Positions 2,775-46,891 of a stretch of 64,000 nucleotides of DNA are shown in pieces. The notes under the pieces are model-generated. The model worked only from the letters and a program-made list of their open reading frames with translations, did not search any database and was not told where the DNA came from. Every line of letters starts with the position of its first letter. Within the stretch, counting starts at the first letter, position 1. The position numbers and the translations under genes are program-made. Source of the DNA: Myxococcota bacterium (GTDB lineage Bacteria; Myxococcota_A; Polyangia; Nannocystales; Nannocystaceae); the NCBI GenBank assembly GCA_039028615.1, contig JBCCHT010000017.1, forward strand, positions 64,001 to 128,000, read 5' to 3'.

Positions 2775-4172
2775 ATGGAGAGTTACAAGGGCCGATTCGA
2801 TCCGACACGCTTCGAGGACCTGACGGTCACCGTCGAGTTCCACTGCCATAGCGCGTGTCGGTTCTGCATCGTGCAAGAGGGGATGAACTACTTCAAGGGC
2901 GTGCCCTTCGAGGTGTTCAAGGCGGCGGCCGACGACAACGCGAAGTCGCAGCGCTACCGACGGATCACGTTCACGGGCGGCGAGGTGACGCTCGAAGCGA
3001 AGCTCTTCGACTACGTCCACTACGCCCGGGACGTGGGCAAGTTCGAGCACATCCGCCTGCAGACCAACGGGCGACTGTGTGCGAAGCCGGAGTTCGCCAA
3101 GCGACTGGTGGACGCGGGGATCGACGAGTTCTTCGTGTCGCTGCACGGGCACGACGCGAAGACGCAGGACTACATCTCGCGCCGCCCGGGGAGCTTCGAC
3201 GAGGCGATCGCGGGCATGGAGAACCTGGCGGCGCTCGACGTGTGCCTGATGACCAACACGGTCCTCACCACGCTCAACCAGCCTCACCTGGCGGACATCG
3301 TGGAGACGGTACAGCGGCTCAAGCCGGTTCGCATGGAGTGGTGGAACTACCTCCCGATGGAGGACTACACCGACGAGCGCGAGCTGCTGTCGCCGATGCA
3401 CAAGCTCGCGCCGTCGCTGCGGGAGGCGCTGGCCCGGGCCAACGGGTACGGCATCGAGACGGCGGTGAAGTACGTGCCCCGCTGCTTGCTCGGCGACCAC
3501 GCCAAGAGCCAGGACAACACGCAGTCCGATGTGCTGATCGTCGAGGAGTTCTACGACATCTATCCCAAGTTCGCGTGCGCGTACGAAGCCCACTGCGAGT
3601 ACGCAGAGTCGTGCCTGGGGCTGCACCATCCGTACATCACGAAGTACGGCTGGGAAGAGGACGTGCTGACCCCGTACGCGCGCAGCACCGACTGGGAAGA
3701 GCCGGAGTACGGGCCGTGGGTGGGCTCGGATCGCCCCGGGCACGCAGATGCGCCGGCCACCGATCAGCCGGAGTGGACCTCGTTGGTCGATGGGGTCGCG
3801 GAGCGCCATGGCGCGACGCTGGCCGAGGTGATCATGCAGCGCCGCGCCTGCGTATATCGCTTCGAGCTTCGGCCGGGCGTGCGTGTGGACGTGCTGCTCA
3901 CCGCGCTCAGCCAGGACCACGCGCTGGCCAAGAGCGCGTCGTTCAACCTGCACTACCGCAACCTGCGGGCCGACCTCGATGATCCGGAGCAACGCAGCGC
4001 GCTGGCGGCCCTGGTGAAGGACGCGGTCAATACGGTCCGGGATCGCGACCCGGGCGGCATGCGGCTCGATGTTCGCAAGGGCTTGGTCGGACCCGAGGCG
4101 CTGCGACGTCGCCCCCGCTCGAAGCCCGCCCAAAAGCCGGGGGTGAAGAGCCTCCGCGTGCTCAACGACTGA
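2775..4172 (+). CDS. radical SAM protein (HxsC-like) with C-terminal shared accessory domain
   Basis: CHSACRFC, FTGGE, LQTNG, FFVSLHG and a Cys-rich tail CAYEAHCEYAESCLG. RBS-like GAGGA upstream. Confidence 0.92.
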   Translation: MESYKGRFDPTRFEDLTVTVEFHCHSACRFCIVQEGMNYFKGVPFEVFKAAADDNAKSQRYRRITFTGGEVTLEAKLFDYVHYARDVGKFEHIRLQTNGRLCAKPEFAKRLVDAGIDEFFVSLHGHDAKTQDYISRRPGSFDEAIAGMENLAALDVCLMTNTVLTTLNQPHLADIVETVQRLKPVRMEWWNYLPMEDYTDERELLSPMHKLAPSLREALARANGYGIETAVKYVPRCLLGDHAKSQDNTQSDVLIVEEFYDIYPKFACAYEAHCEYAESCLGLHHPYITKYGWEEDVLTPYARSTDWEEPEYGPWVGSDRPGHADAPATDQPEWTSLVDGVAERHGATLAEVIMQRRACVYRFELRPGVRVDVLLTALSQDHALAKSASFNLHYRNLRADLDDPEQRSALAALVKDAVNTVRDRDPGGMRLDVRKGLVGPEALRRRPRSKPAQKPGVKSLRVLND

Positions 4173-4309
4173 GCGTCGACGCCCGTACGATTTCTCCGTC
4201 GGTGGTGGAGAGCGACGCATCACCGAGAGCGGAGCGCGTCCGCGGGCGGAGCCGAAATTCGTCACACACGAGGCTCGATTCGCCCCGAGAGTGAAAGAAA
4301 ACCGGCGGC

Positions 4310-6337: not shown

Positions 6338-8716
6338 ATGAGCCGCCCGCAGCTCCAGGACTCGCTCGCATCGTGCGTCGAAGCCGTCACGGCGGGGCGC
6401 TGGCGGCTGGGCCGAGCCGAGCAACGGGGCGACGGCTTGCGCCTGCCCGTCGATCTGGGCGGCGAGGGTGAGACCCGAAGCCTGGTGCTCGAGGTCCGCG
6501 CGGTGGTCGAAGGCCAGCGCAGCTACAAAACCATCGGTCGCTATGCGCTCAGCTACCAGGGCAAGGAGCTGCCCGCAGTGGCGCGGGGGCTGCTCGACCC
6601 GGTGCTCGTCGCCATCGCCAAGGTCCTACACGAGCTCGATTTCGATCCGAGCGCACAGCCGCCGCCGCGCCCCGAGACGGTCGTGCGCGAGCGCGGGCCG
6701 GCCTTGTTCCCCACGCCGTACCAGTGCGCGCAGCTCGATGCCGAGACGCCGCTGAGCCAGGCCGACATCGAGACATTCCGACGCGATGGACACGTGCTGG
6801 TACGCCGCGCCCTGCGTCGCGACGTCATCGTCGCCGCTCGGCCCCCCATGCTCGAGGCGCTGGCCAGCCCGCCCGAGGAAGCCTCGAGCAAGGACACCCG
6901 CGAGGACGCCTACGCCCGCGCGTTCCGGCAGATCACCGACCTCGGTCACTCCAACGTCACCGTGCGGGCGTTCGCGTATGGCCGCCGGGTGCTCCGCATG
7001 GCCGCCGACCTCATGGGCGTGGAATCGGTGCGTCTGTTCTGCGAGGACTGGCTGATCAAGGAGCCGGGAGCCAGCATCACCCCCTGGCACCAAGACGAAG
7101 CGGTCTTTCCCTTCGAAGCGGAGCAGAGCATCACCTGCTGGATCCCGCTGCAAGACGTGCGCGACGGCGACGGCCTCATGCGCTTCGCGACCGGCTCCCA
7201 TCGGCTCGGCCTGGCGGACATCGAGGACATCAGCGACACCAGCGAGTCGGAGTACGACCGCATCATCGAGCGCAACGGCCTGACGGTGGACACCCAGCCC
7301 CCCGTGTTCTCGGGCGACGTCAGCTTCCATCACGGCCGCACGATCCACGGCGCCTTTGCCAACGACAGCGACCGGCATCGCGTGGTGCTGGCCCTGCACT
7401 GCTTCGCCGACGGGGCGCGGATCAAGCCGCCGACGACCCCGAAGATGGCGCGGCTGCTCACCACCGCCTTGCCCGGTGCCGAGCCCGGCGACCTCGCCCA
7501 GAGCGACCGCTGGCCGCGGGTGTACGAGCGAGACTCGGTGCGGACCGAGGTCGGTGAGCCTCGTGCCCGCGAGCGGCTGCACCTGCGCGCCCGCTGGCTG
7601 CCCGATGCGACCGAGCTTCGAGACCTGTGGATCGTCGACGGCCGCATTCGCCTCGAACCGGTGGACGGTGCCACCACCATCGCGGAGCCGGGCGGCTATC
7701 TCACCGCGGGCCTGGTCGAGTGCCACGGCCACATCAGCTATCCGCAAGACCGAGACTCGCCGGTCGGCACGCCCGCCTGGATGAACGGAAAACGGGCCGA
7801 GTACGCGGCCACGGGCGTCCTGTTGATCCGCGACATGGGCGCGGTGGGAGACGAGATCACCGACCTCACCGACTGGCCGGGGCTGCCCCGAGTCCAGGCC
7901 GCGGGCAACATGGTCCTGCGCTACGACGACTTCCCGTTCACGTGCACCGAACCCGAGGCGCTGGTGGCGACGTGCATCCGACGCATGGAGGCCGGCGCCC
8001 GGTGGGTGAAGATCTTCTCCGACTGGTCGAGCGACTACCGCGGCCGGGTCAACACCGGCTTTCGCGGCGACGATGCGTTGACCTATGCGCCCGACCTGCT
8101 CACCGCCGCCGTCGCGGCCGTGCACGAACGAGGAGGGCGCGTCGCCGCCCACTGCTTCACCCACACGGGCGCCGAAGCCTCGATCCGCGCTCGCGTCGAC
8201 TCCCTCGAGCACGGCTGGGGCATCGACAAAACGTTGCTCGACCGAATGGTGGACGCGGGCATCGCCTGGACCCCGTTGGTCGGCATCGCGGTGCACATGT
8301 GGCGAGCCGCCCAGCGCGAAGACCAGAGAGACCGTATGATCTGGGTGCAGGACGCGATGGCCGGGATGGAACGACATTTGCCGCTCGCGGTGGAGCGAGG
8401 GGTCCCGCTGCTCGCGGGCACCGACATGTTCCCCGAGGTCAGCTTGGGCGACGAGGTCCGGCAGCTGTGCGAGCTGGGCGTCGAGCCGACGACCGCGGTG
8501 GGAGCCGCGAGCTGGGCCGCGCGCGCATGGCTGGGCGAGTCGGGCATCGAAGAAGGAGCGCCGGCCGATCTCGTGCTGTTCCGCGAGGACCCGCGTATCG
8601 ATCCCACGGTGTTGGGGAGTCCCGAGCTCATCGTCTCCGGGGGCGAGCGCGTGACCCCGTCCGTGGCCGACATCCGGCCGAGCTACGTCTCTTGGAGTCA
8701 GCGGGACGAAGCCTGA
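6338..8716 (+). CDS. three-domain fusion: shared accessory domain + PhyH-family Fe(II)/2OG dioxygenase + amidohydrolase
   Basis: PhyH part: FRRDGHV, TPWHQD, TIHGA. Amidohydrolase part: VECHGH, VKIF, VAAH, SLEHG, LAGTD, GAPADLV. Confidence 0.88.
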   Translation: MSRPQLQDSLASCVEAVTAGRWRLGRAEQRGDGLRLPVDLGGEGETRSLVLEVRAVVEGQRSYKTIGRYALSYQGKELPAVARGLLDPVLVAIAKVLHELDFDPSAQPPPRPETVVRERGPALFPTPYQCAQLDAETPLSQADIETFRRDGHVLVRRALRRDVIVAARPPMLEALASPPEEASSKDTREDAYARAFRQITDLGHSNVTVRAFAYGRRVLRMAADLMGVESVRLFCEDWLIKEPGASITPWHQDEAVFPFEAEQSITCWIPLQDVRDGDGLMRFATGSHRLGLADIEDISDTSESEYDRIIERNGLTVDTQPPVFSGDVSFHHGRTIHGAFANDSDRHRVVLALHCFADGARIKPPTTPKMARLLTTALPGAEPGDLAQSDRWPRVYERDSVRTEVGEPRARERLHLRARWLPDATELRDLWIVDGRIRLEPVDGATTIAEPGGYLTAGLVECHGHISYPQDRDSPVGTPAWMNGKRAEYAATGVLLIRDMGAVGDEITDLTDWPGLPRVQAAGNMVLRYDDFPFTCTEPEALVATCIRRMEAGARWVKIFSDWSSDYRGRVNTGFRGDDALTYAPDLLTAAVAAVHERGGRVAAHCFTHTGAEASIRARVDSLEHGWGIDKTLLDRMVDAGIAWTPLVGIAVHMWRAAQREDQRDRMIWVQDAMAGMERHLPLAVERGVPLLAGTDMFPEVSLGDEVRQLCELGVEPTTAVGAASWAARAWLGESGIEEGAPADLVLFREDPRIDPTVLGSPELIVSGGERVTPSVADIRPSYVSWSQRDEA

Positions 8717-8720: not shown

Positions 8721-10364
8721 ATGTCTGCCGAGCCACGCATCGCGTTCCTGGCGCGAGACCTCGTCTGGGCCGACAAATCCGGCGGCGTGCTTCCGTTCTC
8801 CTACGCCGCCCGCAAGCTCGATGCATCGCTCAAGAGCGCCCCCGACCTCGAAGGGGTCGAGACCACGCTCATCGATCTGCGGACCGACGATCCCGAGGCG
8901 TTCTTCGAACGCATTCGGGAGTTCCGCCCCACCCTGGTCGCGGCCTCTACCTATATATGGTCGGCCAAGGTCTTCTGCGAGGTCGCGCAGCGGGTGCGGG
9001 AGTGGGACCCGAGCGTGCGCTTCGTGATGGGGGGCCCCGCCGCTCGCCCGTCCCTGCTGTCCTTGCCTCCGTATGCGCCCTACCATCGCACCATCGACGC
9101 GGTGGTGCTGGGCGAAGGCGAGGAGGTCATGCGCGAGCTGGCCCGCAAGCACCTGCACGACGATTGGCGCAGCGAGATCGAAGGGCTGGTGCTCTCCTCC
9201 CCGCTCGGCTGGCGGCACGGCACGCCGCAGGAACGCCCCGCGCTCGACGGCTACGCCTCGCCCTATCAGCTCGGCACCGTGCCCCGCGACGACGTCGGCT
9301 TCCTCGAGACCTTCCGCGGCTGCCCCATGAGCTGTGCGTTCTGCCAATGGGGCGACGAACGGTCCGATCGCGTGCACTCGGTCGAGTACCTCGCCGGGCA
9401 CCTGCGCGGCATGGCGGAGTCGGGCGTCGAGCGGGTCTACGTGCTCGATGCCGGCTTCAACCTCAGCCCGCGCGCGTTCCGAAACCTCATCGCCGCCGAG
9501 CAGCGCGAGCACGTGCTCGAGAACTGCCAGGTCCTCGGCCACATCTACCCGTCGCACGTGCGCGACGATCAGCTGGACTTCCTCGACACCTTTCGGCGAG
9601 CCGAGGTCGCGGTGGGGATCCAGAGCTTCGACACCGACGTGCTCGACGCCCTGGGCCGTCCCTTCGACATCCCGCGCTTCGAGTTCGTGATGAACAAGAT
9701 CCGCGGTCGGCTCGACATCGATCTCGAGCTCATCTTGGGCCTGCCCGGCGACAACCCGCGTGCGTTCCGAAAGACGCTCGAGCGCGCCATGGAGTTCGCC
9801 ACCACGGTGCGGGTGTTCTACTGCCTCGCGCTGCCCGACGCCCTGCTCGAGCGCGCCGCCGAGCTCGACCTCGAGTTCGATCCCGAGACCTTCATGCTCA
9901 CCCGCTGCGCGGGCTGGACCCACGAACAGCTGCAGACGGAGTGGGCCCGGGTCCTCGAGATCGCCCAGTCTTGCCATCGCCCTCATATCGGCCCCAACTG
10001 GGTCGACTTCCGCCCCAATACTCCCGCGAAGGCCGAGCGGACCGAGCGGCCGACCCGTCGCGACGACTCGCTGTCTGCCGCACGCGTGGCCCCGGTCGGC
10101 GAGCAGATCGCGGGCGCGGGTGTGGGCTGGAGCCTCGACACCGCACGGGCCCACCACGGCACGCTCTTGCTCGCGTTGGGCGGCGGTCGCGACGGGCTGA
10201 CGCTCGAGATCACCGCGGCGGCCGAAGGTCAGCGACACTTCCGAGAGCTGGGTGGCGTCGCCTACTCCTATCGCGGTGCGCTCGGCAACGGTGACGCCGA
10301 GCGACTGACGACGTTGATCCCTCGCATCCACGCGACGGTGAAGGACCTGCTCGAGTCGCTCTGA
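8721..10364 (+). CDS. B12-binding-domain radical SAM protein
   Basis: N-terminal Rossmann-like STYIWS...VMGGP...VVLGEGE, then ETFRGCPMSCAFC, GIQS, LILGLPGD. Confidence 0.9.
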   Translation: MSAEPRIAFLARDLVWADKSGGVLPFSYAARKLDASLKSAPDLEGVETTLIDLRTDDPEAFFERIREFRPTLVAASTYIWSAKVFCEVAQRVREWDPSVRFVMGGPAARPSLLSLPPYAPYHRTIDAVVLGEGEEVMRELARKHLHDDWRSEIEGLVLSSPLGWRHGTPQERPALDGYASPYQLGTVPRDDVGFLETFRGCPMSCAFCQWGDERSDRVHSVEYLAGHLRGMAESGVERVYVLDAGFNLSPRAFRNLIAAEQREHVLENCQVLGHIYPSHVRDDQLDFLDTFRRAEVAVGIQSFDTDVLDALGRPFDIPRFEFVMNKIRGRLDIDLELILGLPGDNPRAFRKTLERAMEFATTVRVFYCLALPDALLERAAELDLEFDPETFMLTRCAGWTHEQLQTEWARVLEIAQSCHRPHIGPNWVDFRPNTPAKAERTERPTRRDDSLSAARVAPVGEQIAGAGVGWSLDTARAHHGTLLLALGGGRDGLTLEITAAAEGQRHFRELGGVAYSYRGALGNGDAERLTTLIPRIHATVKDLLESL

Positions 10365-10431: not shown

Positions 10432-11580
10432 ATGGACGTTCACCAGCACCTGCGAGCCCTCCTCGCCCCGCTCACCGTGGGGGAGGACGTGCTGCCCGGG
10501 GTGAAGCTGGATGGAACCTCGACCGAGCTGGGCATCCGGCTGCGGCTCAAGGCCGGCGAGCAGCGCATCTGGATCGACGTCACCCCCGTCGATCGCACCC
10601 CACGATGGGCGGCGCGCTCGAAGCTGCTGGCGATCAGCTACCGCGACGAGGGCGGCCACAACGTCGTCGACCAGAAGCTCGGGCTGGCGGTCTGCCAGCG
10701 AATCGCGGGCATCATCGCGGGCAACGAAGACGCGGTCATCGAGGCCTTGCGCGAAGAAGCGGCGGCCGAGGCCCCCGTCGATGCGCGCATTCGCGAGGTG
10801 TTCGTCCCCACCGCGCTCGATGCCGCGGGCCCGGCCGACAATCCCTACTACACCATCAACCCCTACGTCGGCTGCGTGATCGGGTGTCGGTTCTGCTACG
10901 CGCAGACCACCCTCGGGCTCATGCGGCAGATGATGGGGCTGGTCGAAGTGCCGTGGGGCAGCTGGGTGGAGGTCCGGGCCAACCTGCCCGAGGTGCTGAG
11001 CGAAGAGCTGGCGCGGCTCCCTCCCCGACCGATCAAGTTCTGCCCCATTGTCGGCGACGCCTACCAGGCCGTGGAGAAGAAGCACTGCATCACGCAGCGC
11101 TGCCTCGAGGCCATTCGCGACAGCGGACGCCCCTGGCCCACGCTCATCCTCACTCGCTCCACGCTCATGGCGCGAGACCTCGAGCTGATGGCCACCCTGC
11201 CCGCACCCTGGGCCGGCGTCTCGCTCCCCACCGTCGACGACGAGGTCCGCAAGCACTTCGAGCCCCGGGCGTCGAGCGTGCCCGAGCGCCTCGAGCTGCT
11301 GGCCACCCTCCGCAAGGCCGGCATCAAGACGGTCGCGGTGGTGCAGCCGCTGTTCGCCGGCCCCTTGGAAGAGCTCGCGGATACCCTGGCCGAGTACGTC
11401 GACGGGGTCTCCTGGGACGTGCTGCGCGGGGAGGAAGGCGCGGAGAAGGACTTCGACGATCCACGCTTCGAGCAGACGCGCACCGAGGACTGGCAGCGCG
11501 ACCGCGCCATCGCCATGCTCGGGATGCTGAAAGATCGCGGCGTGGCCGTGTGGGATTCCGACCTCCCGCCGCAGCCCTGA
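10432..11580 (+). CDS. radical SAM protein, spore-photoproduct-lyase/Rv2578c-like, with N-terminal shared accessory domain
   Basis: INPYVGCVIGCRFCYA, DAYQAVE, ILTRS, FEPRASSVPERL. GGAGG RBS before ATG 10432. Confidence 0.88.
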   Translation: MDVHQHLRALLAPLTVGEDVLPGVKLDGTSTELGIRLRLKAGEQRIWIDVTPVDRTPRWAARSKLLAISYRDEGGHNVVDQKLGLAVCQRIAGIIAGNEDAVIEALREEAAAEAPVDARIREVFVPTALDAAGPADNPYYTINPYVGCVIGCRFCYAQTTLGLMRQMMGLVEVPWGSWVEVRANLPEVLSEELARLPPRPIKFCPIVGDAYQAVEKKHCITQRCLEAIRDSGRPWPTLILTRSTLMARDLELMATLPAPWAGVSLPTVDDEVRKHFEPRASSVPERLELLATLRKAGIKTVAVVQPLFAGPLEELADTLAEYVDGVSWDVLRGEEGAEKDFDDPRFEQTRTEDWQRDRAIAMLGMLKDRGVAVWDSDLPPQP

Positions 11581-14230: not shown

Positions 14231-16093
14231 ATGACTCGGCCGGTCTCGAAATCGCGACTGTGCCTGCTGGTGTTCTTGCTCGGCATCGTCGGGCTGGCGT
14301 TGTCGAGTCTGTGGGTGCCGGCCGAGGCCGAGCCGCGCACCGAGACGGCGAGCGCCGAGCCCGATGCTCCGGCGATCGCGACGATCCCCGCGTGCCGCGA
14401 TCCCAGCGGACCCGAGCGACCGGTGATTCAGCCGGGGCGCGAGGTCGCCATGCTCGATTGGATTGCACCGCTGAGAGAAGGCGGCGTCGGGGGGCTGTCC
14501 GTCCACGGGGTGAGCCTGGCGAGTGATCACCTGCAGATCCGCCTGGAGGGCGACGTCGCGGGCGAGTGCGCCTTGCCGCGCTGGTCCGGCACCGCGGGGG
14601 TGCTCGCGATCGGCTGCGGAGGGCTGGATCTCGAGGGCCTGCCGCCGCCCGAGGGGCAGGCCCAGCACGGCGACTTCGTCAGCGCCTGGTGGAGGTGCGA
14701 CCGCTCGACGCCCTTCGACGGCCAGCAAAGCCTCGAGTCCCTCGCCGCCCGCTACGACGGCGACATCTGGGGCACGACCCTCGACGCCAGCGTCCCGACC
14801 TCGGAGAGCCCGTCCAGTGCCGTCCCCGAGGGGTGGGATGTGTCCGAGCCGGTGTCCGTGTCGAGTCAGGGCATCTTGGGCCCCGCCGCGCAGGCGCTGG
14901 GGTCGTCCCCGTCGGCGGTGATGCAGTGGACCTTCGTGCTCGGCGCGTTGGTATCGCTGGTCGCGTTCATCGTCCTCGGCGATGCGAGCACGCCACCCGC
15001 CGCGAGCTCGGACGCCGACCCACCGAGCTCGCGAAGGCAGCCGCTCATCACCCTCCTCGTGCTCGTCGCGGTGGTGCTGGCTGCGGTCGCCCTGCGCGGC
15101 TGGCTCGGCTCGTCGGCGGTTCTCGACAGCGACGAAGACGTGTGGGGCCGCGCCTCGCAGCTCCCCGTGTTCGCCGACGACCACGACGCCTGGGTGCACC
15201 CGCCGCTCTATCGGCTCCTTCAGCACCGCTGGTCCGCATTCGCCTTCGACCGCGCCGCCTCCTCGATCGCATGGCTACGCGGCCCGAGCATGGTGGCCAG
15301 CATGATCGCCGCCGCGACAGTCGCCGCACTCGCGTGGTTCCGCGGCTCGAAGCCGGTGGGGCTGCTCGTGCTCGGCCTGTGCGTGGGCAGCCCCGTGCTC
15401 GCAGAAGCCGGAGTCATCGCGCGCCCCTACGGTCTCGCTTCGATGCTCTTCGCCGTGGTGCTGCTCGCCCTGCACGGTCGCGAAGACCGTCCCTCGTGGC
15501 CCAGCGCCACGCTCGCGGCCGGCCTCGTCCTGTGGTGTGACCTGCTCTACGGGGCGGCCGCACTGCTGCTGGTCGTGCTCGAGCTGGTGCGACGACAACG
15601 ATCCCGCGAGCATCGATCGTGGCCGACCATGGCGTGGGTCGCCTTTGCGCTCGGGCTATGGAGCGCACCGCTGCTGCCGGGGGCACTCCACCCCGCCCGA
15701 GCCGACAGCACGCTGATCCACAGCGGCGATCGAGCATCCGAGGACAACCCCGATCTGCGCCCGGAAGATCCGATGACCACGCGCGCCGCGACCGTGGCCT
15801 CGTTCGCGGGCTGGGACCTGGGCGCGCCCGTCGGCCTCGCGAGCGCGGTGGGACTCGTCGCGCTGTGCATCGCTCGCCGCCGATCGGAGCCCGCGCTCCT
15901 GCTGGGCGTCGCCTGCTTGGCGGCGGGGGCCGCCGCGGCCGTAGTGGAATTGCGCCCGCGGAACATCTTGTTCGTGCCCTTGGCCACCACCGCGGCGTGG
16001 CTGGTGCTGCTCGACTCGCAGCTCAGACCACGCGACCGCCCGATTGACGCGAAACCCGAACCAAAGCCCACGGACGCCGACGAAGCGTACTAA
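14231..16093 (+). CDS. GT-C-like membrane protein with exported N-terminal accessory domain
   Basis: Signal/TM N-terminus, then LDSDED...HPPLY...LRGPS...ARPY motifs typical of PMT/ArnT-like GT-C proteins, and many TMs. Confidence 0.75.
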   Translation: MTRPVSKSRLCLLVFLLGIVGLALSSLWVPAEAEPRTETASAEPDAPAIATIPACRDPSGPERPVIQPGREVAMLDWIAPLREGGVGGLSVHGVSLASDHLQIRLEGDVAGECALPRWSGTAGVLAIGCGGLDLEGLPPPEGQAQHGDFVSAWWRCDRSTPFDGQQSLESLAARYDGDIWGTTLDASVPTSESPSSAVPEGWDVSEPVSVSSQGILGPAAQALGSSPSAVMQWTFVLGALVSLVAFIVLGDASTPPAASSDADPPSSRRQPLITLLVLVAVVLAAVALRGWLGSSAVLDSDEDVWGRASQLPVFADDHDAWVHPPLYRLLQHRWSAFAFDRAASSIAWLRGPSMVASMIAAATVAALAWFRGSKPVGLLVLGLCVGSPVLAEAGVIARPYGLASMLFAVVLLALHGREDRPSWPSATLAAGLVLWCDLLYGAAALLLVVLELVRRQRSREHRSWPTMAWVAFALGLWSAPLLPGALHPARADSTLIHSGDRASEDNPDLRPEDPMTTRAATVASFAGWDLGAPVGLASAVGLVALCIARRRSEPALLLGVACLAAGAAAAVVELRPRNILFVPLATTAAWLVLLDSQLRPRDRPIDAKPEPKPTDADEAY

Positions 16094-23051: not shown

Positions 23052-23211
23052 AGTGTGGTGAGTCTGCAATCCGTTTCAAAAGAACGCTGTCAGCGCGGGC
23101 CATGCCAAGGCACGAAGAGGGCGTTCATTGGGCCTGAGCAACCGATGAGGAACGCAGGCATGGGCCGCGGGGGCGGTGCTATTTTGGAGCGGATTGCAGA
23201 CTCACCACACT
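23052..23211. mobile_element. MITE-like element (~160 bp) with terminal inverted repeats
   Basis: AGTGTGGTGAGTCTGCAATCCG (23052-23073) is the exact reverse complement of CGGATTGCAGACTCACCACACT (23190-23211), extendable to 30 bp with 2 mismatches. Ends overlap CAAG/CTAG. No transposase nearby. Confidence 0.7.
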
Positions 23212-23274
23212 AGCCACTCCGCCGAGGCCGCGGCCGGCCCCAGCAGTCGCCCGACGGGCAGCCGTGGAGCGCTC

Positions 23275-34463: not shown

Positions 34464-34469
34464 CATTGG

Positions 34470-36278: not shown

Positions 36279-38221
36279 GCCCGCGCCGCATCGCGTTCCT
36301 GGTGTTCCAGAGCCTACGCAAGGGGTCGTATCTCCACGACGGGGAGATCTCGATGCTCTCGGGGCAGCTGCGGCTCGAGGGGGCCGACAACGAGGTCGTG
36401 GAGGCGGTCTTCGACGGCGCCAACGAGACCGAGAACACCGCGGTGCTGTCCCAGCTCGCCGACGCGCTCGCCGAGCATGCGTTCGACGTCCTGGTGTTCC
36501 ATCGCATCTGGGATGCCACCTTGCCCGGTCGGGTCCGCGAGCTGCTGGCGGCGCGTGGCCAGCAGCCCTTGTTCGTGCTGCATCCCACCAAGGAGATCGA
36601 CTCCACCGAGCCCTACGACTGCGTGCTGGGAGCCTCGCCGCTGCAGGCTCTGCGCGCCATCGCCAAGGCCCCCGATCCGCTCGGGCTTTCGGGGCTCGCG
36701 GGGCTGTCGTATCGCGATGCCGAGGGCACGCTGGTCGACAACCCACCCGCCGAGCCCGCGCCAGTCCAACCTCGCTGGGAGCGGACCTCCAACTTTCGCC
36801 GCATTCGCGTCAACCCCGAGGCCGCGGGTCGGCCCCCCGCGGCGGTGATCTACGGCAACCCCGGCTGTCCCTATCGCAAGCCCGTGTCCACCGTCGAGGT
36901 CTGGCGACGCCTGTCCCTCGATCCCGAGACCACCAACACCCGCGGCTGCGCCTTCTGTGACGTGAACCTGTCCGAGGACTGGCGCCACGTGCCCGAGATT
37001 GCCGCGCACTGCGTGCGGCAGATCGGCCAGGTCCAAGCCGATCTGCCCGACGCGTACGAGATGATCCTGCTCGATCAGGATCCCTTTCCGTACCTGCCCG
37101 GCCTCGTCCGGGGCCTCGCCGCCCAGGGGGCCCGACCGCTCCACCTGCTCATCCAGGCGCGCGCCGACCTGTTCCTCAAGCGCACCCACAAGTTCGAGGA
37201 AGCGCTCGCGCTCGCGCGCGACGGCGGGCATCGGCTCAGCCCCTTTTTGGTGGGCATCGAGAACTTCCACCAGCCCACCCTCGATTTTTACAACAAGGGC
37301 GTCACCGTCGAGACCAACGAGCAGGTGCTGCTCTACCTGCGCGAGGTCGGCCAGCGCTTTGCCGACGTGGTCGACCTCGACAAGATGTCGCCCGGCTTCA
37401 TCCTCTGGCACCCGTGGGTGACCATGGAGTCGCTACGGGTGAACCTCGAGGCGCTCGCCAACACCGAGCTCATGCGGTTTCGGCGAGAGGTCGTGCTGTC
37501 GAAGATTCGCCTCTATCCCGACATCCCGTTCTACTGGAAGGCCAAAGAAGACGGCCTGCTGCTTCGCTCCTACGGGGCCGAGGGTTTCGATTCGGCGGAG
37601 CGCTACGGATACAGCGAAGAGCACCCCTACCGCTTCGAACGCCCGGAGGCGCAGGCGGCCTATACCCTGCTCGCCGAGTTCTCGAACAAGCACGGCGCGG
37701 TCGACGAGCTGCCGCTGCTGGCCCTGGTGCTCGACTGGGTCGAGGCGCGCCGCGAGTATTGGGACGACGAACGACAGCTGGGTCTACGCCAGCCGGATGC
37801 GCTGTGTGAGCGCTTCGAGAGCGACCACGGCGGAGACATTCGGGCGCTGCGTCGCGGTCGAAGCGGTGGCGGAAACAAGCGCGACGCCACCGAGAGCCAG
37901 CGCCGAGAAGTGTTGGCGCTGCTCGGGGTGTCGGGTACGGGCACGCCGATCGGCTCGGGGCAGTTCGAGCTGGCGCGCATGTTCTGCCAAGACGACCGAC
38001 GCGAGCTGCTCTTCGCGCTCTCGGGACAGAAAAACCGCGTGTCCAGCGATCCCCGCTCGGCCGCGTTTCGGTTGTTCATCGCCCCGCGCTCCTCGAAGCC
38101 GCACTACATGCAGACGCGCGAGCTGAACCTGAGCTACTCGGTGCCCGGCGACGACCCGGCGGCCATGGCCGAGGTGGCCCTGCTCTGCGAGCGGATCGCC
38201 GCCGCCGAGGCTCAGGGATGA
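36275..38221 (+). CDS. B12-type radical SAM-like protein with split Cys motif and C-terminal shared accessory domain
   Basis: GCPY-x-RGCAFC (Cx26Cx2C), LVGIENF...L...NKG, GFILWHPW. TTGA overlap with the upstream stop. Confidence 0.82.
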   Translation: MSPRRIAFLVFQSLRKGSYLHDGEISMLSGQLRLEGADNEVVEAVFDGANETENTAVLSQLADALAEHAFDVLVFHRIWDATLPGRVRELLAARGQQPLFVLHPTKEIDSTEPYDCVLGASPLQALRAIAKAPDPLGLSGLAGLSYRDAEGTLVDNPPAEPAPVQPRWERTSNFRRIRVNPEAAGRPPAAVIYGNPGCPYRKPVSTVEVWRRLSLDPETTNTRGCAFCDVNLSEDWRHVPEIAAHCVRQIGQVQADLPDAYEMILLDQDPFPYLPGLVRGLAAQGARPLHLLIQARADLFLKRTHKFEEALALARDGGHRLSPFLVGIENFHQPTLDFYNKGVTVETNEQVLLYLREVGQRFADVVDLDKMSPGFILWHPWVTMESLRVNLEALANTELMRFRREVVLSKIRLYPDIPFYWKAKEDGLLLRSYGAEGFDSAERYGYSEEHPYRFERPEAQAAYTLLAEFSNKHGAVDELPLLALVLDWVEARREYWDDERQLGLRQPDALCERFESDHGGDIRALRRGRSGGGNKRDATESQRREVLALLGVSGTGTPIGSGQFELARMFCQDDRRELLFALSGQKNRVSSDPRSAAFRLFIAPRSSKPHYMQTRELNLSYSVPGDDPAAMAEVALLCERIAAAEAQG

Positions 38222-40555: not shown

Positions 40556-42739
40556 ATGCGATCGCGGGCGCGGGCACGGCTCGATGAGGACGTGCGAGAG
40601 CCCGGCCTCCGCCCGCTCGTCATCGTCGTCACGCGCCTCCTTCCGCTGCTCGGCGTGCTGTTGGCGACGCTGTGGCCTCACCGAGCGATGGCGGCCCCCG
40701 TGATCCCCGCCGGCCAAGAAGCGCGGATTCAGAGCCTGTTTGCGCCGTTGGGGCTGGGCGAGCGGGTCACGGACGCGTGCACGCTCCGCAACATCGCCAT
40801 CGAGCCCTCGCGCATCGTAGTGGGCGTGCAGCTCGACGACGACCGCGAAGCGCGGATGGAGCTGGACCCGCCTGCCGACCTGTTTGGGGGCGACCGAGAC
40901 CTCCCGAGCTTCGCCGTCTCCTTCGAGGGCGACGACGAGCCGCAGCTCCGACGGTGCCTGACCGCGGTCCGCGATGCCGCTGCCGACAATGACGACGGGC
41001 AATTCTGGCAGTCGATCGCCGTCGCCCCCGGGAGCAACGAGGTCCAGCGAGCGAAGCAAGGGGACACAAACGGGGACACGAAGGGTGAGGCCGTCTCGAG
41101 CCAGCCCGCCGAGCAGCGTCGGATCAGAGATTCGCTGTCGCTGCTGACCCGTCCATGGGGCGACGACGGCCTCTTTCGCTTCGGCCTCATGGTGCTCGTG
41201 CTCGCCGTCGTACTCGTCGCCACCACCCGCCGCGACGGCACGCGCCCTGCCGCCCTGCTCGCCGCCACTAGCCTCGGCGCGTGGGGTGTCCGAGCGTGGC
41301 TCTCTCCCGCAGTGGCCATGGCGCCCTGGCCCTACTCGCGGGTCATCGCTCCCGCCCAATCGACGATGGGCAGCTCGCTGCTGTCCTCGCTGTTCCCCGA
41401 CGGCATCGCGCTGACGTCGCTCGTGTTCGGCTCCGTATGGGCCTTTGCCCTGCTCGCCCCGGTCGCCGTGTACCTGCACGGGCGCTACCTGCTCGCGGAC
41501 CCCAAGCGCGCCCTCGGGGCGGCCTTCATCCTCGCCGCGCTCCCCCTGCACATTCGCTTCTCGCAGACCGACACCGCCTTCATCCCCTCGATCACCACGA
41601 CCGCGCTGGTGTTCGTGCTCATCCACATCGTGACCCGCGAAAAGCAGGACTGGGCCCGCATGTCGGCGCTCGTCCTGCTGCCGGGCGCGATGACCATGAT
41701 GTTCGAGATCCGCCCGCTGAACATCATGTACATGCCGCTGATGCTGGGCACCTGCGTGGTGCGAGGCTGGAGCGATCTGGACAAGCGCTGGGTGGTGGCG
41801 GCGGCAGGCCTGGTCAGCGTCGTGACCTTCGGCATCGGCGTCCCCACCCTGCTCGACGGCTTCGCCAACGAGGTCGACGAGGGGCTCAGCTTCGCCGTAC
41901 TCGTGCGCTCGCTCGGCGTGCTCTTCGACTGGGAGTACAACATCCTGCTCAACCCCATGTTCACCCCCACCGGGGTGCTCGCCCTCGCCGGGTTCGGGGG
42001 ATGGTCGCTGGTCCGAGGCGGCGAGCGGCGCGTGCTCGCGTTCCTGGTGCTCTGGCTGATGATGTTCCTGGTCGCGCACGCGTACATCGTGCCCGTCTCC
42101 CCCGCGATGCAGGCCCGCTACCACCTGCACCTGGTCACTCCCTTCGTCATGCTGGCGGGGTGTGGCCTCGCCGCGCTCCCGCCGGGACGGTGGCGGACGG
42201 CGATCCTCGCCTACATCGTCGTCGCTCCGCTCATCCACTCGTCGTTCATCACCGACACCGGGTACAACGACATGCGGGAGTTCCAGTTCGTGCAGCGCAC
42301 CGCCGCGCTCGTTCCCGACGACTGCACCGTGCTCGAGTACAGCGGCCAGCTCCCGAGCGACGCGCGATACCAGCGGATGACCACGACCGTCCACGAGGGT
42401 AAGCAGAAGGCCCGAGTCGTCAGCGCGCCGACCCACGACTCGGGCGTCACCGAAGGCGCGAGCGACCCGCTGGTCCCCGAGGTCCGCGCGCTGGTCGAGC
42501 GACCCCCGCAGTGCACCTATCTATACGTAGGCCTCGCCTGCGAGGGCCTCAAGGCTCCCGACGACGATCTGCACCCCGCCTGTGAGGCCATGCTGAACGG
42601 ACTGGAGTGGGAGCTCGTCGCCGAGGAACGAACCCCCTCGCGGCTGTACGATGGCCACTACCGCCCCGGCTACGCGTCGGGGCACCCCGACCACGCCCAC
42701 TTCCGCCTCCTTCGCGTCACCGGATCGAAACGACCGTGA
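40556..42739 (+). CDS. GT-C-like membrane protein with exported N-terminal accessory domain
   Basis: Signal peptide (…HRAMA-APVIPAGQE), many TMs (LPLHIRFSQTD, IRP, ARY) and a Cys-containing C-terminal soluble domain. TATCGT-N7-ATG 40556. Confidence 0.75.
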   Translation: MRSRARARLDEDVREPGLRPLVIVVTRLLPLLGVLLATLWPHRAMAAPVIPAGQEARIQSLFAPLGLGERVTDACTLRNIAIEPSRIVVGVQLDDDREARMELDPPADLFGGDRDLPSFAVSFEGDDEPQLRRCLTAVRDAAADNDDGQFWQSIAVAPGSNEVQRAKQGDTNGDTKGEAVSSQPAEQRRIRDSLSLLTRPWGDDGLFRFGLMVLVLAVVLVATTRRDGTRPAALLAATSLGAWGVRAWLSPAVAMAPWPYSRVIAPAQSTMGSSLLSSLFPDGIALTSLVFGSVWAFALLAPVAVYLHGRYLLADPKRALGAAFILAALPLHIRFSQTDTAFIPSITTTALVFVLIHIVTREKQDWARMSALVLLPGAMTMMFEIRPLNIMYMPLMLGTCVVRGWSDLDKRWVVAAAGLVSVVTFGIGVPTLLDGFANEVDEGLSFAVLVRSLGVLFDWEYNILLNPMFTPTGVLALAGFGGWSLVRGGERRVLAFLVLWLMMFLVAHAYIVPVSPAMQARYHLHLVTPFVMLAGCGLAALPPGRWRTAILAYIVVAPLIHSSFITDTGYNDMREFQFVQRTAALVPDDCTVLEYSGQLPSDARYQRMTTTVHEGKQKARVVSAPTHDSGVTEGASDPLVPEVRALVERPPQCTYLYVGLACEGLKAPDDDLHPACEAMLNGLEWELVAEERTPSRLYDGHYRPGYASGHPDHAHFRLLRVTGSKRP

Positions 42740-45072
42740 GCCCCTCGCGACCGCCCCCACGTGAAAACCCCGGGTCAGCGCCCCTGGAGCCCGCCCCCGG
42801 CTGGCTGTCGCGGATCGCCGACGCTCCCGTGACTCGCGTGCGCGTTCGTCTCGGCCGTGGGTTGGTCTACCAGTTCCGCACCGCGGCGGGCGGGCGCTTC
42901 GCACTGAGCCTGCCGCTCACGAACGACCGCCGTGGTCTGTGGTGGGACCAGGCCAAGTTCAAGGTCGTCGGCGACGGCGAGCCCGTGCGCCCCTACCTGG
43001 CCCGCTTCGCGGCCGAGCGCCGCGATCCCGAAAGCTCGATCGAGCGCGACATCCTGCGCCATACGATCGTGATGGACTTCCTCAAGGGAGGTGTCATGCA
43101 TCGCACGAGCGCGGCGTCCGACGATCTGCGCCCGCTGATGGAGCTGTTGTCGACCCTCAGCCTGGGATCGATCGAGCCCCCAAAGCGCTGGACTGACAGC
43201 GAGGACCCTTTCGTCGTCGCGGCCCGTACCTTCATCGATCTGCTGGTCCGAGGTGATCTGCTGCCGCTGCTCGATCCGCTCCCATCAGCCGTCGTCACCG
43301 ACCGCGGAGGCGAGTGGCTGCACGTGCTGTCCGCCACGATCAACGGTGACATCGCCGGCCTCCAGCGCCTCGCCGCGATGGATCCGCTCCCGGGCAAGGG
43401 CACCCCGCTGGCCTCGTTTTGCGGCAACGTCTTCAAGCACACCGGGTTCATCGAATCGGCGCTGCGCTTGCTCGAGCAGGGGCACCAGCCCACTCCGTCC
43501 CGAAGGTGTGAGCGCTGCATCGAGCTCGCTCAGCTGTTGCTGCAGCTCGGCGACGCCACGCGAGCCCACGTTTTTCTCCGCGAGGCGACCTTGAACGCGG
43601 GGAACGACCCCGAGCAGCTCCTCCGCGCCGTGCGGGAGCTGATGCGAGTGGAGGCCATCGACGATGCCTATCACGTGCTGTCCCAGGCGGCCCCGCACAT
43701 GGACCGTGCCCCCGAGGTGCTGTTTTGCCTGGCCGAGCTCCAGCACGTGGCCGGGCACGTCGACAAAGCTCGCACCACCCTCGATCGCATCGGCCACATC
43801 GCACCCGGCCGCCACGACGTCGCCCGCGAGCGCGCTGCGCTGGCCATGACCGAGGAGAGATTCGAAGACGCGCGCACCATGCTCCAGCAAGTGCTCGTGC
43901 AGCACCCCCGAGATTGGGTCGCGAGCACCTGGCTGACCGAAGCGCACCTTCGCCTCGGCGACATCGAAGCCGCCGAGCAAGCGCTCAAGGATGCTCGTAG
44001 CGTGCACGACAGCCCCATCCACACGCTGCTCCAGGGCGCCATGCTCAGCCTGGTGGAGCTGCGGCGCCACGACGAATTCAAGGAGCTGCTCGCCGACTGG
44101 GACGAGCCGTGGTCGATCGAAGACGCCGCCCAGAGCCCGGGGCCGCACCCCGCTCGCGACTACGTCTTGTCCATCCTCCCCAGCTTCCGTGGATCTCGGG
44201 GGGAAAACCTCACCCGCGTGTCCCCGCTCGCCGACGGCCCCACCGGGGTCCGGCCGGTCGCCACCAGCAAGCGAGACTCTCGCTCCGAGAGCCGCCAAGC
44301 CTCGGCCGAAGCGGTGAAGTCGATCGTCCTGCGGCCCCCCGAGGCGGTCTTCGAGGCCTTCGAGCAGATCATCGCGCAGTATCCCGACTCTCCCCATCCG
44401 TGGTGTTACCGCGGTGAGGTGCGACTGTGGCTCGGGGACTTCGACGGGGCCATGGCCGACTTCGACGCCGCCATGCTCCGCGACAAGGCACGCTGGGCCT
44501 TCATCGGTCGCGCCGCCATTCACCTCATGGCCGGTCGTCGCGAAGAAGGCCTCGCCCAGATCGACGCCTGCCAGAAGAGCTTCGATGCCGTCCCCAGCGC
44601 CACCACCCACATCTACCTGGGAGAGGCCGACCGCAAAGAGGGCAAGCTCGACAGCGCCTTGACCGAGCTGCGGGAGTCGGTGCGCGTCAAGCCCGGGCGC
44701 ATCTCGGGGTGGATCAACCTCGCCCTCACTCACCATGCGCTCGGTCAGCCCGAGTCGGCCACCGAGATCTCGGCCCGCGTCTGCCGAGTCGCGCCCCGCC
44801 TCGTCCGGGATGCCGCGGCTGCGGCGGGCTTCGAGCTGCCCCCGGCCACCACCGCGTGGATCCCCTCCACCGAGCAGCTCGCCCCCGTGCTCGAGCGATC
44901 GTTGGAGATGATGCGAGGCAATCGCTCCTCGCACACCGTGACCTACTTCGACCGTGACGGCGTGTTTCGCCAGGCCCGCGACGCCGAGTCCTGGGTGGGG
45001 CAGCTCGCCGGTCTACGGCTGCCCGTGTGGGAGGAAGCGCGGCGACGCGCCCTCCACGGCACCCTGCTCTAG
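42736..45072 (+). CDS. tetratricopeptide repeat protein
   Basis: Multiple TPR-like repeats (PWCYRGEVRLWLGDFDGAMADF; HIYLGEA; GWINLAL). GTGA overlap with the upstream gene. Confidence 0.85.
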   Translation: MSPSRPPPRENPGSAPLEPAPGWLSRIADAPVTRVRVRLGRGLVYQFRTAAGGRFALSLPLTNDRRGLWWDQAKFKVVGDGEPVRPYLARFAAERRDPESSIERDILRHTIVMDFLKGGVMHRTSAASDDLRPLMELLSTLSLGSIEPPKRWTDSEDPFVVAARTFIDLLVRGDLLPLLDPLPSAVVTDRGGEWLHVLSATINGDIAGLQRLAAMDPLPGKGTPLASFCGNVFKHTGFIESALRLLEQGHQPTPSRRCERCIELAQLLLQLGDATRAHVFLREATLNAGNDPEQLLRAVRELMRVEAIDDAYHVLSQAAPHMDRAPEVLFCLAELQHVAGHVDKARTTLDRIGHIAPGRHDVARERAALAMTEERFEDARTMLQQVLVQHPRDWVASTWLTEAHLRLGDIEAAEQALKDARSVHDSPIHTLLQGAMLSLVELRRHDEFKELLADWDEPWSIEDAAQSPGPHPARDYVLSILPSFRGSRGENLTRVSPLADGPTGVRPVATSKRDSRSESRQASAEAVKSIVLRPPEAVFEAFEQIIAQYPDSPHPWCYRGEVRLWLGDFDGAMADFDAAMLRDKARWAFIGRAAIHLMAGRREEGLAQIDACQKSFDAVPSATTHIYLGEADRKEGKLDSALTELRESVRVKPGRISGWINLALTHHALGQPESATEISARVCRVAPRLVRDAAAAAGFELPPATTAWIPSTEQLAPVLERSLEMMRGNRSSHTVTYFDRDGVFRQARDAESWVGQLAGLRLPVWEEARRRALHGTLL

Positions 45073-45169
45073 CGTGCTGAATCTGCGAGGTTGAGCGCCA
45101 TTCGGTGGCGCGATAGATTGGTCGGCGGAGCATCGTCGTGCCCTTTGCCCAACGCCAGCAGGTCGCCGC

Positions 45170-46891
45170 GTGACTCGAGTCGGCCTCAAAGTCCTCGACG
45201 TCCCGGAGCCCAGCGCCCGCGACCTCATCGAGGCCTCGACCGTCACCGCGCAGAGCTCGGGGCATCAGTTCGAGATCCAGCTCGGGCACATGTGCAACAA
45301 CCGCTGTGTGTTCTGCGTCAGCGGGCACCTCAGCAAGCGGCGAATGGTCCGCCCGCTCGACGCTCAGCCGATCCTCGACGTCATCGAGCGAGCCCGTCGC
45401 GAAGGCGCCGTGCGCCTGGTCTTCCTCGGCGGCGAGCCCACCATTCAGCCCGCCTTCTTCCCCGCGCTGAAGCATGCGTCCAGCCTCGGCTTCGAGGAAA
45501 TCGTCATCTTCACCAACGGGGTACGGCTCGCCCAGAGGGACTTCATCGATGACTGCTTGAAGATCGGCCGCTTCACCTGGCGGATCTCCATTCAGGGCGC
45601 CAACGAAGCCGCCCACGTCGCGGTCACCAAAAAGCCCACCTCGTTCCAACGCATCATCACGGGCATCGACAAGCTGCGCGAGCGAGGCCAGCGGGTCACC
45701 GCCAACATGTGCGTGTGCGAGGAGAGCTACCGCTCCCTGCCCGACTATCCCGGCCTCGTCTCCAAGCACGGGATCAAGCAGCTCCACATCGACATCGTTC
45801 GCCCCCAGAGCAGCGGCATCAAGACCGACGAGTACCTGCGGGAGATCATGCCCAAGTATTCGGTCATGGCCCCCTACTACGACGAGATGCTGCAGGGCTT
45901 CGACGCCTGGGACCCCAACTTCGACGTCAACATCGGCAACCTGCCGTACTGCGTCCTTCCGCAGTGGGGCCACCGCATCCACCACGGCGGCGAGAACACG
46001 GTCACCCAGTCCACCAGCTCGTCGGGGCTGGAGAACGAGGCGCGCAACAAGTACGCCGTGCACAACCGGCAGCGCACCTATACGGAGCGGTGCACCGAGT
46101 GTGCCTTCGCCGATCGCTGCTCGGGCGTGTTCAAGGACTACATCCAGGTCTACGGCGACGACGAGTTCCAACCGGTCAGCCTCGAGCGACTGCGGAGCCT
46201 CGACCCCGACCAGAACAACTTCACCGTGCTCGTCGCCCCCTTCGTGGCCGAGCTCGAGAAGTCCACGCCGCCGAGCGGCTGGACCTCGTCGCGAAACTTC
46301 ACCGATGCCCGCAGCCGCTGCGTAGAGCTTCGGTTCGAGCGCAAGGGCAGCGCGGTCACTCTGTTCTTCGCCCCCGCCGCGGGCAGCGACACCCAGCGAC
46401 CAGCCACCGCCTTCACCACCGATCAGTTCCGCCTCGACCTGGGCGTCGAGGGCTGGTGCGATGATGCCGATCTCATCGCGCTGGTGAGGTGGGCCTTCGA
46501 GACGTCGACCTGCGACGACCGGGTCAATGCGCTCGGTGAGGTCGACGAAGCGCAGGTGCTCGCCGCTCGAGGTGAGCACCCGGCCTTGGGCCGCAGCCGG
46601 GCGCGGATGCATCGGCTCGTGCGTGCGCTGCAGCGGACGGCTCGGTTCGCGGCGTGGCGCTACGAGGGCTACGAGCGCAGCGCCGACGGCAACTCGGCCA
46701 CCGTCAACGTGGGCGGACCCGAGGGCATGGGCGTGTCGCTGACCATCTCCGCCACCACCAAGGCGGGGCGCAGCGCCGTGGATGCGACCTTCGCGTTGGC
46801 CGAGGGCACCGACGAGAACGCGGCTCGGCCCGCGATCCAGGCGATGGTCGCCGCCATGAAGCGGCAAGAGTCTCGGCCCGGCCGCGGCTGA
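45170..46891 (+). CDS. radical SAM protein (HxsC-like) with C-terminal accessory domain(s)
   Basis: CNNRCVFC, FLGGEP, IFTNG, NLPYC, CTECAFADRCSG, YIQVYGDDEFQP. Confidence 0.92.
   Translation: MTRVGLKVLDVPEPSARDLIEASTVTAQSSGHQFEIQLGHMCNNRCVFCVSGHLSKRRMVRPLDAQPILDVIERARREGAVRLVFLGGEPTIQPAFFPALKHASSLGFEEIVIFTNGVRLAQRDFIDDCLKIGRFTWRISIQGANEAAHVAVTKKPTSFQRIITGIDKLRERGQRVTANMCVCEESYRSLPDYPGLVSKHGIKQLHIDIVRPQSSGIKTDEYLREIMPKYSVMAPYYDEMLQGFDAWDPNFDVNIGNLPYCVLPQWGHRIHHGGENTVTQSTSSSGLENEARNKYAVHNRQRTYTERCTECAFADRCSGVFKDYIQVYGDDEFQPVSLERLRSLDPDQNNFTVLVAPFVAELEKSTPPSGWTSSRNFTDARSRCVELRFERKGSAVTLFFAPAAGSDTQRPATAFTTDQFRLDLGVEGWCDDADLIALVRWAFETSTCDDRVNALGEVDEAQVLAARGEHPALGRSRARMHRLVRALQRTARFAAWRYEGYERSADGNSATVNVGGPEGMGVSLTISATTKAGRSAVDATFALAEGTDENAARPAIQAMVAAMKRQESRPGRG

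Follow-up and report, generated by a model that had tools for sequence, protein, structure and literature searches.

An undescribed domain shared by enzymes and predicted exported proteins of HxsA4-type His-Xaa-Ser systems in Myxococcota

The only characterised relative of the peptide system described here is the His-Xaa-Ser (HXS) system of Escherichia coli, a broad anti-phage defence that blocks phage DNA entry and comprises four genes (>99.8%), with a substrate, HxsA, that carries a signal peptide and a peptidoglycan-binding domain (PMC13128918). HxsC and HxsD form a complex there, and the authors suspect that export receives dedicated help (PMC13128918). The type-4 system is catalogued in NCBIfam (NF038313, NF038332, NF038315, TIGR03978) but chemically unstudied. 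A second point of comparison is the RRE, the recognition element of peptides that are synthesized ribosomally and modified post-translationally (RiPPs), which PMC7470986 defines as three helices plus a three-stranded sheet. We analysed a window of 64,000 nucleotides from a Myxococcota bacterium (contig JBCCHT010000017.1, here C17, positions 64001-128000; source genome G000, 12.3 Mb, 68% GC; other G numbers denote genomes of relatives), in which one domain recurs on proteins encoded between positions 2775 and 46891. This domain is an undescribed family, and we tentatively propose that it recruits its hosts to the HxsA4 peptide.

Core Hxs genes lie about 6-13 kb upstream of the window on C17, where HxsB scores 570.5 bits (TIGR03978 cut-off 370), an HxsD-like protein 65 (NF038315, cut-off 41) and an aKG-HExxH protein 94.7 (cut-off 40). 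The HxsA4 precursor gene (C17:58139-58558, plus strand; L083:13140-13559), 5.4 kb upstream of the window, reaches 129.4 bits against the NF038313 cut-off of 55, and its 139 residues comprise a hydrophilic leader of ~57 residues, 27 HxS repeats, (His-Gly-Ser)27, and a terminal Trp, with no signal peptide. This build of leader, repeats and W recurs in 13/13 aligned precursors, with conserved LPxF and L..xRxxSxxA motifs in the leader and 11-27 repeats across the copies of 13 genomes. None of the HxsC/HxsC4-like enzymes tested passes the cut-off of HxsC4 (NF038332; best 122.8 against 500) or HxsC (TIGR03977; best 115.5 against 267.9), although these are the best-scoring families for most radical S-adenosylmethionine (SAM) enzymes of the cluster. 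Judged from its sequences, the cluster is an HxsA4-type His-Xaa-Ser system, which puts a name to the single pathway that a preliminary description of the window had supposed for these proteins; the tie is one of co-occurrence. With the NCBIfam type-4 set the cluster shares HxsA4, HxsB and an HxsD-like protein over their cut-offs, whereas its HxsC-like proteins fall far below theirs, accessory enzymes and membrane transferases are added, and no model covers the domain. With the E. coli system it would share an HxS-repeat substrate, cytoplasmic maturation by HxsB/HxsC/HxsD and an exported product (PMC13128918). In contrast to E. coli HxsA, the precursor here is a leader followed by (HGS)27-W, lacking both the signal peptide and the peptidoglycan-binding domain, and the new domain may have taken over the tasks of export and recognition. 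Beside the precursor gene are three proteins (L083:13631-14476, 14416-15408 and 16684-17583) with no match in Pfam or NCBIfam; two of them look related, with similar G(Y/F)xS ends.

Within the window, genes 2775-46891 encode a series of radical SAM enzymes whose best families are HxsC4/HxsC, all at sub-threshold scores, together with a B12-binding radical SAM enzyme, an SPL/PA0069-like radical SAM enzyme, three PhyH proteins, a JmjC/cupin protein, a UbiA protein, a flippase-like protein, a tetratricopeptide repeat (TPR) protein and four polytopic membrane proteins without a Pfam match. The preliminary description had noticed a recurring pattern on many of these proteins, and every motif that it quoted is present where it had placed it. 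Copies are named here by the start of the host gene in the window and the end that carries the domain (2775-C is the C-terminus of gene 2775). When the 12 excised segments were compared pairwise, only 1/66 pairs was significant (6338-N with 8721-C, z=8.2; the remaining 65/66 at z<=3.3), and profiles were therefore needed for the other links; at profile level seven segments align. A profile seeded on 10432-N was iterated over the relatives' loci around the 10432 gene, with reversed sequences as decoys. At a stage when it contained relatives of 8721-C and as yet none of the following four segments themselves, it ranked 8721-C at 29.0 bits (E=8.6e-7), 6338-N at 14.9, 2775-C at 13.9 and 36275-C at 13.7, the best reversed decoy reaching 10.0; after inclusion these four climbed to 39-47 bits. 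Started from other single segments, iteration came to a halt at 1-7 members.

As a non-circular test we ran hhalign between separately built subfamily alignments, for which reversed controls gave <=5.3%. Against 10432-N, 40556-N reached 96-97% over 90 columns and 8721-C 88-90%, and 6338-N gave 99.7% with 8721-C and 84.6% with 10432-N. 2775-C gave 39-40% with 10432-N and 16-54% with 40556-N, and 36275-C, the weakest of the five cytoplasmic copies named beforehand, 19-33% with 2775-C and 9-23% with 10432-N. Profile A1, built without 40556-type rows, found 40556-N at E=1.8e-4 genome-wide and 40556 orthologues at up to E=1.4e-9; a profile from the 40556 orthologues alone (A2) ranked 10432-type segments above decoys, and hhalign of A2 with A1 gave 97.8% (E=6.7e-13). 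The link across the membrane, between 40556-N and the 10432-N type, is thus the best-supported distant link in the family. The divergent 14231-N matched the 40556 profile at 97.3% over 105 columns (E=1.9e-11) and the family profile at 81-82%. By these sequence comparisons the seven window segments 2775-C, 6338-N, 8721-C, 10432-N, 36275-C, 40556-N and 14231-N are one domain family. The five cytoplasmic copies and the two proposed behind the signal peptides of 14231 and 40556 accordingly stand as described, and among three further segments that had been called probable copies, one, in 45170, is retained at 41% and 10% in hhalign for its two parts (probable and possible), while those in 28279 and 42736 fall to the level of reversed controls.

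All copies in the window lie on the plus strand. 2775-C (3756..4088) ends an HxsC4-like radical SAM enzyme (2775-4172) and has 25 orthologous segments and hhalign values of 39-54% against other subfamilies. 6338-N (6338..6679) opens a PhyH-amidohydrolase (6338-8716), is of the B12-C-terminal type and clusters with the B12-C copies in a quick tree; 8721-C (10059..10361) ends the B12-binding radical SAM enzyme (8721-10364). The reference copy, 10432-N (10432..10767), opens the SPL/PA0069-like radical SAM enzyme (10432-11580), which has a match at E<=1e-40 in 50/301 class genomes and its nearest named database relative in Paraliomyxa miuraensis (P0045), the two being 84% identical across the domain. 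36275-C (37892..38218) ends an atypical radical SAM-like protein (36275-38221) and sits on a long branch. 40556-N (40688..41026) lies directly behind a Sec-type signal peptide (..HRAMA-A) in a protein (40556-42739) that resembles C-type glycosyltransferases (GT-C), and 14231-N (14417..14779) follows the N-terminal hydrophobic segment of another membrane protein (14231-16093) and contains an inserted Cys pair, C51 and C94, invariant in 5/5 rows. Hydropathy places one segment with an AxA-like end ahead of the domain and 7 behind it in 40556, and 9 segments in 14231; both are predicted to be polytopic membrane proteins with an exported N-terminal region. In both, the domain follows the predicted signal peptide or N-terminal hydrophobic segment, as the preliminary description had it. 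The GT-C-like label stays tentative: neither window protein has a PMT/PMT_2-type Pfam match, nor do 4 orthologues of 14231, PMT appears below cut-off (E=2.4e-4) in 1/11 orthologues of 40556, and 3/34 relatives bear the UniRef name 'Glycosyltransferase RgtA/B/C/D-like'. A probable degenerate copy forms the first C-terminal segment of the radical SAM enzyme 45170-46891 (46205..46531; 41%, E=2.8e-4, reversed control 1.6%), and a possible second one its C-terminus (46574..46888; 10-15%, and 13.0 bits against a best decoy of 12.7, which is borderline).

Other candidates were rejected. The N-terminus of the radical SAM enzyme 28279..29646 (minus strand) gave 0.35% in hhalign against a reversed control of 1.0%, and <=1.6% to five subfamilies; that of the TPR protein 42736..45072 (plus strand) gave 0.4-0.5%, at control level, and <=2% to subfamilies, the own profiles of both being thin (2-3 rows). 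The first of these genes probably spans no more than 29646->28279 (minus strand), and 29767-32679 is a gene of its own on the plus strand. Copies in 25088, 11596 and 32676 were rejected on control-level scores.

AlphaFold2 (AF2) models of 10432-N (62 rows, pLDDT 95.8) and 40556-N (20 separate rows, pLDDT 90.6) have an identical element order, in 10432-N helix 3-11, strands 19-21, 24-30, 34-41, 44-52 and 66-71, and helix 81-111. The models thus predict one topology for a cytoplasmic and an exported copy, namely a short helix followed by one short strand and three strands in a meander, then a long loop, a final strand and a long helix, and the two have fold-search neighbours in common (Aha1-N, KA1 domains, MucB 211-313, SPLUNC1 and the phosphoglucomutase C-domain), in keeping with the structural likeness expected earlier. 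In the VIA-align fold search neither model found a neighbour at Z>=8 (best Z 6.2 among the top 50 rows), Foldseek gave none at E<=0.001 against PDB and viral structures, and an ESM Atlas search with 10432-N gave no meaningful match (best 0.83). No Pfam family covers the domain in 62 copies or in 60 stand-alone copies, NCBIfam, including the type-4 His-Xaa-Ser models, gave 0 meaningful matches among 70 copies, PHROGs matched 1/70 members to one unnamed family without meaning, and the best PDB sequence reached E=0.19. No well-known unrelated domain therefore accounts for the segments in Pfam, NCBIfam, PHROG or PDB sequences, and no clear fold match emerged. The literature covered, including the accessible part of PMC9062424, holds no description of HxsA4 or of this domain, supplements and most subscription text lying outside that search.

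Like the PqqD-like RRE, the domain has ~100 residues and occurs either alone or as part of various enzymes that act on the peptide of a single pathway. It differs in having two helices around a five-strand meander, in sitting on accessory rather than core enzymes, and in occurring also outside the cytoplasm. PF05402 (PqqD) has no match among the 62 copies, a Pfam model that misses most RREs (PMC7470986). The early suggestion of an RRE analogue with a different pattern is consistent with all this: the domain is not an RRE, its predicted element order departing from the RRE definition, and it probably plays a part comparable to that of an RRE, by means of another fold and with a reach that, unusually, extends across the membrane. 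The C-terminal domain of MucB/RseB (PF17188), a periplasmic peptide-binding domain, likewise combines a sheet with a helix and binds a peptide helix in the periplasm (PMC7400510). As a fold neighbour MucB reached Z 6.0 (root-mean-square deviation 3.0, 79 aligned) with 10432-N and Z 4.4 (3.4, 79 aligned) with 40556-N, and in an ESM Atlas feature search with the Tat copy described below it ranked first (0.89), sharing 138 features against 170 typical of members. In contrast to the domain, MucB has 6+2 strands; its Z values tie with those of unrelated folds, the level of a common arrangement, and sequence and profile signals are absent. Neither PF17188 nor PF14285 (DUF4367) matched anything in the genome at E<=10 or any of 60 stand-alone copies at E<=1, and hhalign with RseB gave <=0.14%, against one RseB sequence rather than a profile. 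We treat MucB/RseB homology as a lead only.

Three more copies lie upstream on C17, at the C-terminus of a radical SAM enzyme (C17:61341), at the C-terminus of a membrane protein (C17:25527) and in a twin-arginine protein (C17:53443). The last, a putative substrate of twin-arginine translocation (Tat; C17:53443-53988, plus strand; L083:8444-8989), has 181 residues, is nearly all domain and adjoins HxsB in divergent orientation. It represents a stand-alone family of at least 169 proteins with a conserved C-terminal tail (LLT..ER...P), in which a twin-arginine motif is present in 108/116 relatives with an initial Met (shuffled sequences, 10.6%); TAT_signal/UCR_Fe-S_N Pfam matches are weak and occur in 2/60 stand-alone copies. 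From these sequences we predict the stand-alone copies to be Tat substrates. A small Tat-type copy occurs in the same locus (up to 20 kb) in 7/19 non-classical HxsB loci, as against 0/3 classical ones, and stands beside HxsB in G000 and G227, while 11/19 loci have no copy nearby. Cytoplasmic enzymes, exported membrane transferases and the stand-alone protein together place the domain, by predicted location, on both sides of the membrane, as had been proposed. Across the fetched loci, 109 distinct copies divide by a crude rule, in a sample biased by the choice of loci, into 42 N-terminal and 17 C-terminal copies on radical SAM enzymes, 18 N-terminal and 2 C-terminal copies on polytopic membrane proteins, 13 stand-alone and 17 others; the domain also occurs on a halogenase-like flavoprotein and on a DUF483-like protein, among other hosts. 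Outside the cluster, paralogues of the catalytic parts in G000 lack the domain (SPL-like 0/1, B12 0/2, PhyH 0/1). A search of a representative library with a single sequence returned 41 proteins, mostly 10432-like. A second Tat-type domain protein is encoded elsewhere in G000 (L145:8114-8629; C16:53.1-53.6 kb).

Co-occurrence with Hxs genes was counted in two samples, in which the domain counts are lower bounds. In the class sample (n=301; domain at E<=1e-4, HxsB at E<=1e-100) 76 genomes have both, 3 the domain only, 9 HxsB only and 213 neither. Two of the nine HxsB-only genomes were inspected (G219 and G259), and both hold classical HxsB-HxsC-HxsA loci. Such loci were seen in three myxobacteria (L168, L170 and L171 in G272, G259 and G219), where a hydrophobic N-terminus precedes repeats of the HSS/HRS kind and a beta-rich domain forms the C-terminus; 0/3 carry a copy, and HxsA there has its own export signal. 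In the phylum sample (n=301; domain and HxsA4 both at E<=1e-6), where 94/301 genomes have the domain, the corresponding counts are 88 both, 6 domain only, 29 HxsA4 only and 178 neither; they become 78/5/29/178 (n=290) once the genomes that gave training rows are removed, and 81/13/18/189 with HxsA4 at 1e-10. G000 also holds a second, dispersed Hxs system on other contigs, with an HxsA4 precursor (L166:12595-12894; C16:92594), an HxsB/HxsD pair (L165:10135-12135; C5:246 kb) and the second Tat-type domain protein named above.

In the quick tree, in which 38/67 forks are open, copies cluster by host type and not by genome (15 changes against 43 shuffled), which suggests that the fusions are old and few. 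The GT copies (14 rows) form one clade with support 99, the Tat copies (7 rows) one with 92, and the SPL copies (23 rows) fall into two changes. In G227 (L002:3940-8112) the 2775 orthologue is fused in frame to the PhyH-amidohydrolase with a single copy between them, and gene 4310 has no match there, while in G000 the two are separate genes with a copy each. In each of the two genomes with the PhyH-amidohydrolase (G000, G227) a single copy thus lies in cis to it, and since it is present in 2/73 order genomes we regard this history as an anecdote.

The reading we favour, tentatively and at slightly less than an even chance, is that HxsA4-type systems use the domain as a mobile module for recruitment, which binds the HxsA4 peptide, its Tat copy possibly exporting it. 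The peptide suggests itself as ligand: it is the single molecule expected to come within reach of every host type, from accessory enzymes in the cytoplasm to a Tat-exported protein and transferases facing outward. In favour of this reading we count the one family and topology on both sides of the membrane, the neighbouring Hxs core genes, the co-occurrence with HxsA4 and HxsB, the lack of copies in classical loci, the small Tat-type copies in HxsB loci, the twin-arginine motifs of stand-alone relatives, the lack of the domain in paralogues outside the cluster and the single copy in cis to the PhyH-amidohydrolase. In such a pathway cytoplasmic maturation of the (His-Gly-Ser)n-Trp precursor would fall to HxsB, HxsD-like and HxsC-like proteins, which lack the domain and would also bind the leader; the gene content is observed and the chemistry would follow that of E. 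coli HXS. The SPL-like and B12 radical SAM enzymes, the HxsC4-like paralogues and PhyH, which come from unrelated families and are each fused to one copy at either end, would then gain access through the domain, which may bind the peptide, most likely its matured repeat core. The Tat protein, little more than a domain, may bind the signal-less folded precursor and carry or receive it across the inner membrane. GT-C-like transferases, predicted to hold the domain outside, would finally bind and decorate the product, drawing on a lipid-linked donor, for which the flippase-like (LPG synthase TM) and UbiA prenyltransferase genes (23176..25085; PF03706 E=5e-6, below cut-off, and PF01040 61.6 bits, over cut-off) are candidate suppliers. 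As the core maturases lack it, the domain is unlikely to be the primary leader reader and marks accessory proteins instead. A complex prediction with precursor, Tat copy and 10432-N scored 10432-N at 0.02 and 0.13 against a mark of 0.32, with controls not folded, and counts neither way.

Several observations weigh against peptide recruitment. Mean column identity across the family is 20%, no column reaches 90% conservation, and the conserved surface residues differ by subfamily. Neither HxsB nor the core HxsC-like enzymes carry the domain, nor do HExxH and the PhyH genes 13379 and 27503, and relatives of 36275 in other genera align to about residue 500, ending short of it. Some copies lie away from Hxs genes, among them that at the C-terminus of a HemN-like radical SAM enzyme (C9:57312-59096, minus strand; L146:7313-9097), away from the cluster, and copies scattered across G212 (12 in all). 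In the phylum sample 29/117 HxsA4 genomes lack a copy (16 candidates scored per genome), and kin genomes are not independent in these counts. The host-type clusters sit on long branches, and in two of four orthologue pairs the domain drifts faster than its host (53 vs 84%, 63 vs 76%). Common recognition of a substrate or carrier, as first proposed for the domain, is something we infer, weakened by the absence from core maturases and the lack of an invariant residue.

Protein-protein docking, in which the copies bind each other or a common partner (the HxsB/HxsD core, a TPR scaffold or the Tat protein) and the peptide is reached indirectly, is unlikely in our judgement, yet it is the strongest competitor. 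Fusion at either enzyme end is typical of docking domains, conserved surfaces that are specific to subfamilies and not family-wide suit specific pairings, the cluster encodes two TPR proteins, and an HxsC-HxsD complex is known (PMC13128918). Cytoplasmic and exported copies cannot touch, however, save via the Tat protein before or after export, and some genomes (G290, G273; profile A1) hold a single copy. Binding of a membrane or lipid intermediate, by which enzymes on both faces of the inner membrane would reach an intermediate linked to polyprenyl or anchored in lipid, appears improbable: UbiA, flippase-like and GT-C-like genes do lie in the cluster, and KA1, the MucB/RseB C-terminal domain and SMP/BPI-like domains are weak fold neighbours (Z 4.4-6.2), but every fold score is <8, the level of common arrangement, the domain of ~105 residues is far shorter than tubular lipid-binding chains (97-101 aligned over ~200), and its co-occurrence is with peptide genes. 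Common ancestry without common function, the domain having spread inside plastic clusters into host-specific structural roles or decay, would suit the long branches, the lack of an invariant residue, the fast drift and the degenerate copies in 45170 and 14231, but is equally hard to credit given 81-83% domain identity in two orthologue pairs, copies kept with subfamily-invariant positions in 37 SPL-type and 19 GT-type orthologues, and the stand-alone exported family.

Returning to peptide recruitment, it is tempting to speculate further that the domain represents a second fold for peptide recognition, distinct from the RRE, and that what it reads is not the leader but the (His-Gly-Ser)n core after maturation. 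As a plug-in tag it would let the RiPP line continue across the inner membrane, with accessory radical SAM enzymes and oxygenases inside, the stand-alone Tat copy exporting the signal-less peptide as a hitch-hiker, and GT-C-like glycosylation outside, yielding a split, decorated HXS anti-phage effector; we consider this whole picture rather unlikely. The domain is a marker that places orphan enzymes and membrane transferases in HxsA4 systems even where genes are scattered, as in G212. Two questions become testable through it: by what route a His-Xaa-Ser peptide without a signal gets out of the cytoplasm, and in what way dozens of unrelated enzymes come together on a single substrate of low complexity. 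Should it bind the peptide, RiPP engineering would gain a new recognition tag that is portable and the first to be seen on both membrane sides.

Further genes of the region deserve mention. The upstream membrane protein with the domain at its C-terminus (C17:25515-26837, minus strand; L082:516-1838) has no Pfam match; behind it come Kdo-transferase-like genes, genes that by appearance are NeuC/NeuA/NeuB-like, and genes of the polysaccharide deacetylase-like and sulfotransferase kinds, which together may supply the system with sugar. Three window proteins have tandem radical SAM-like domains of which the first is degenerate (16157-18001, 29767-32679 and 34434-36278); the 29767 protein has a Gfo/Idh/MocA domain too, and its G227 orthologue is fused to the C-terminal part of 32676 (DUF483-like). 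Between 36275 and 38829 an open reading frame of 112 residues (38226-38564, minus strand) has gene-like codon bias (GC3 0.84), three Cys and no match in an NCBIfam search. Unrelated to the domain, a Cys/Asp-rich repeat lipoprotein and, beside it, a probable outer-membrane protein (55930-58002 and 54188-56137, minus strand) both carry CxDGxDNDxDG repeats.

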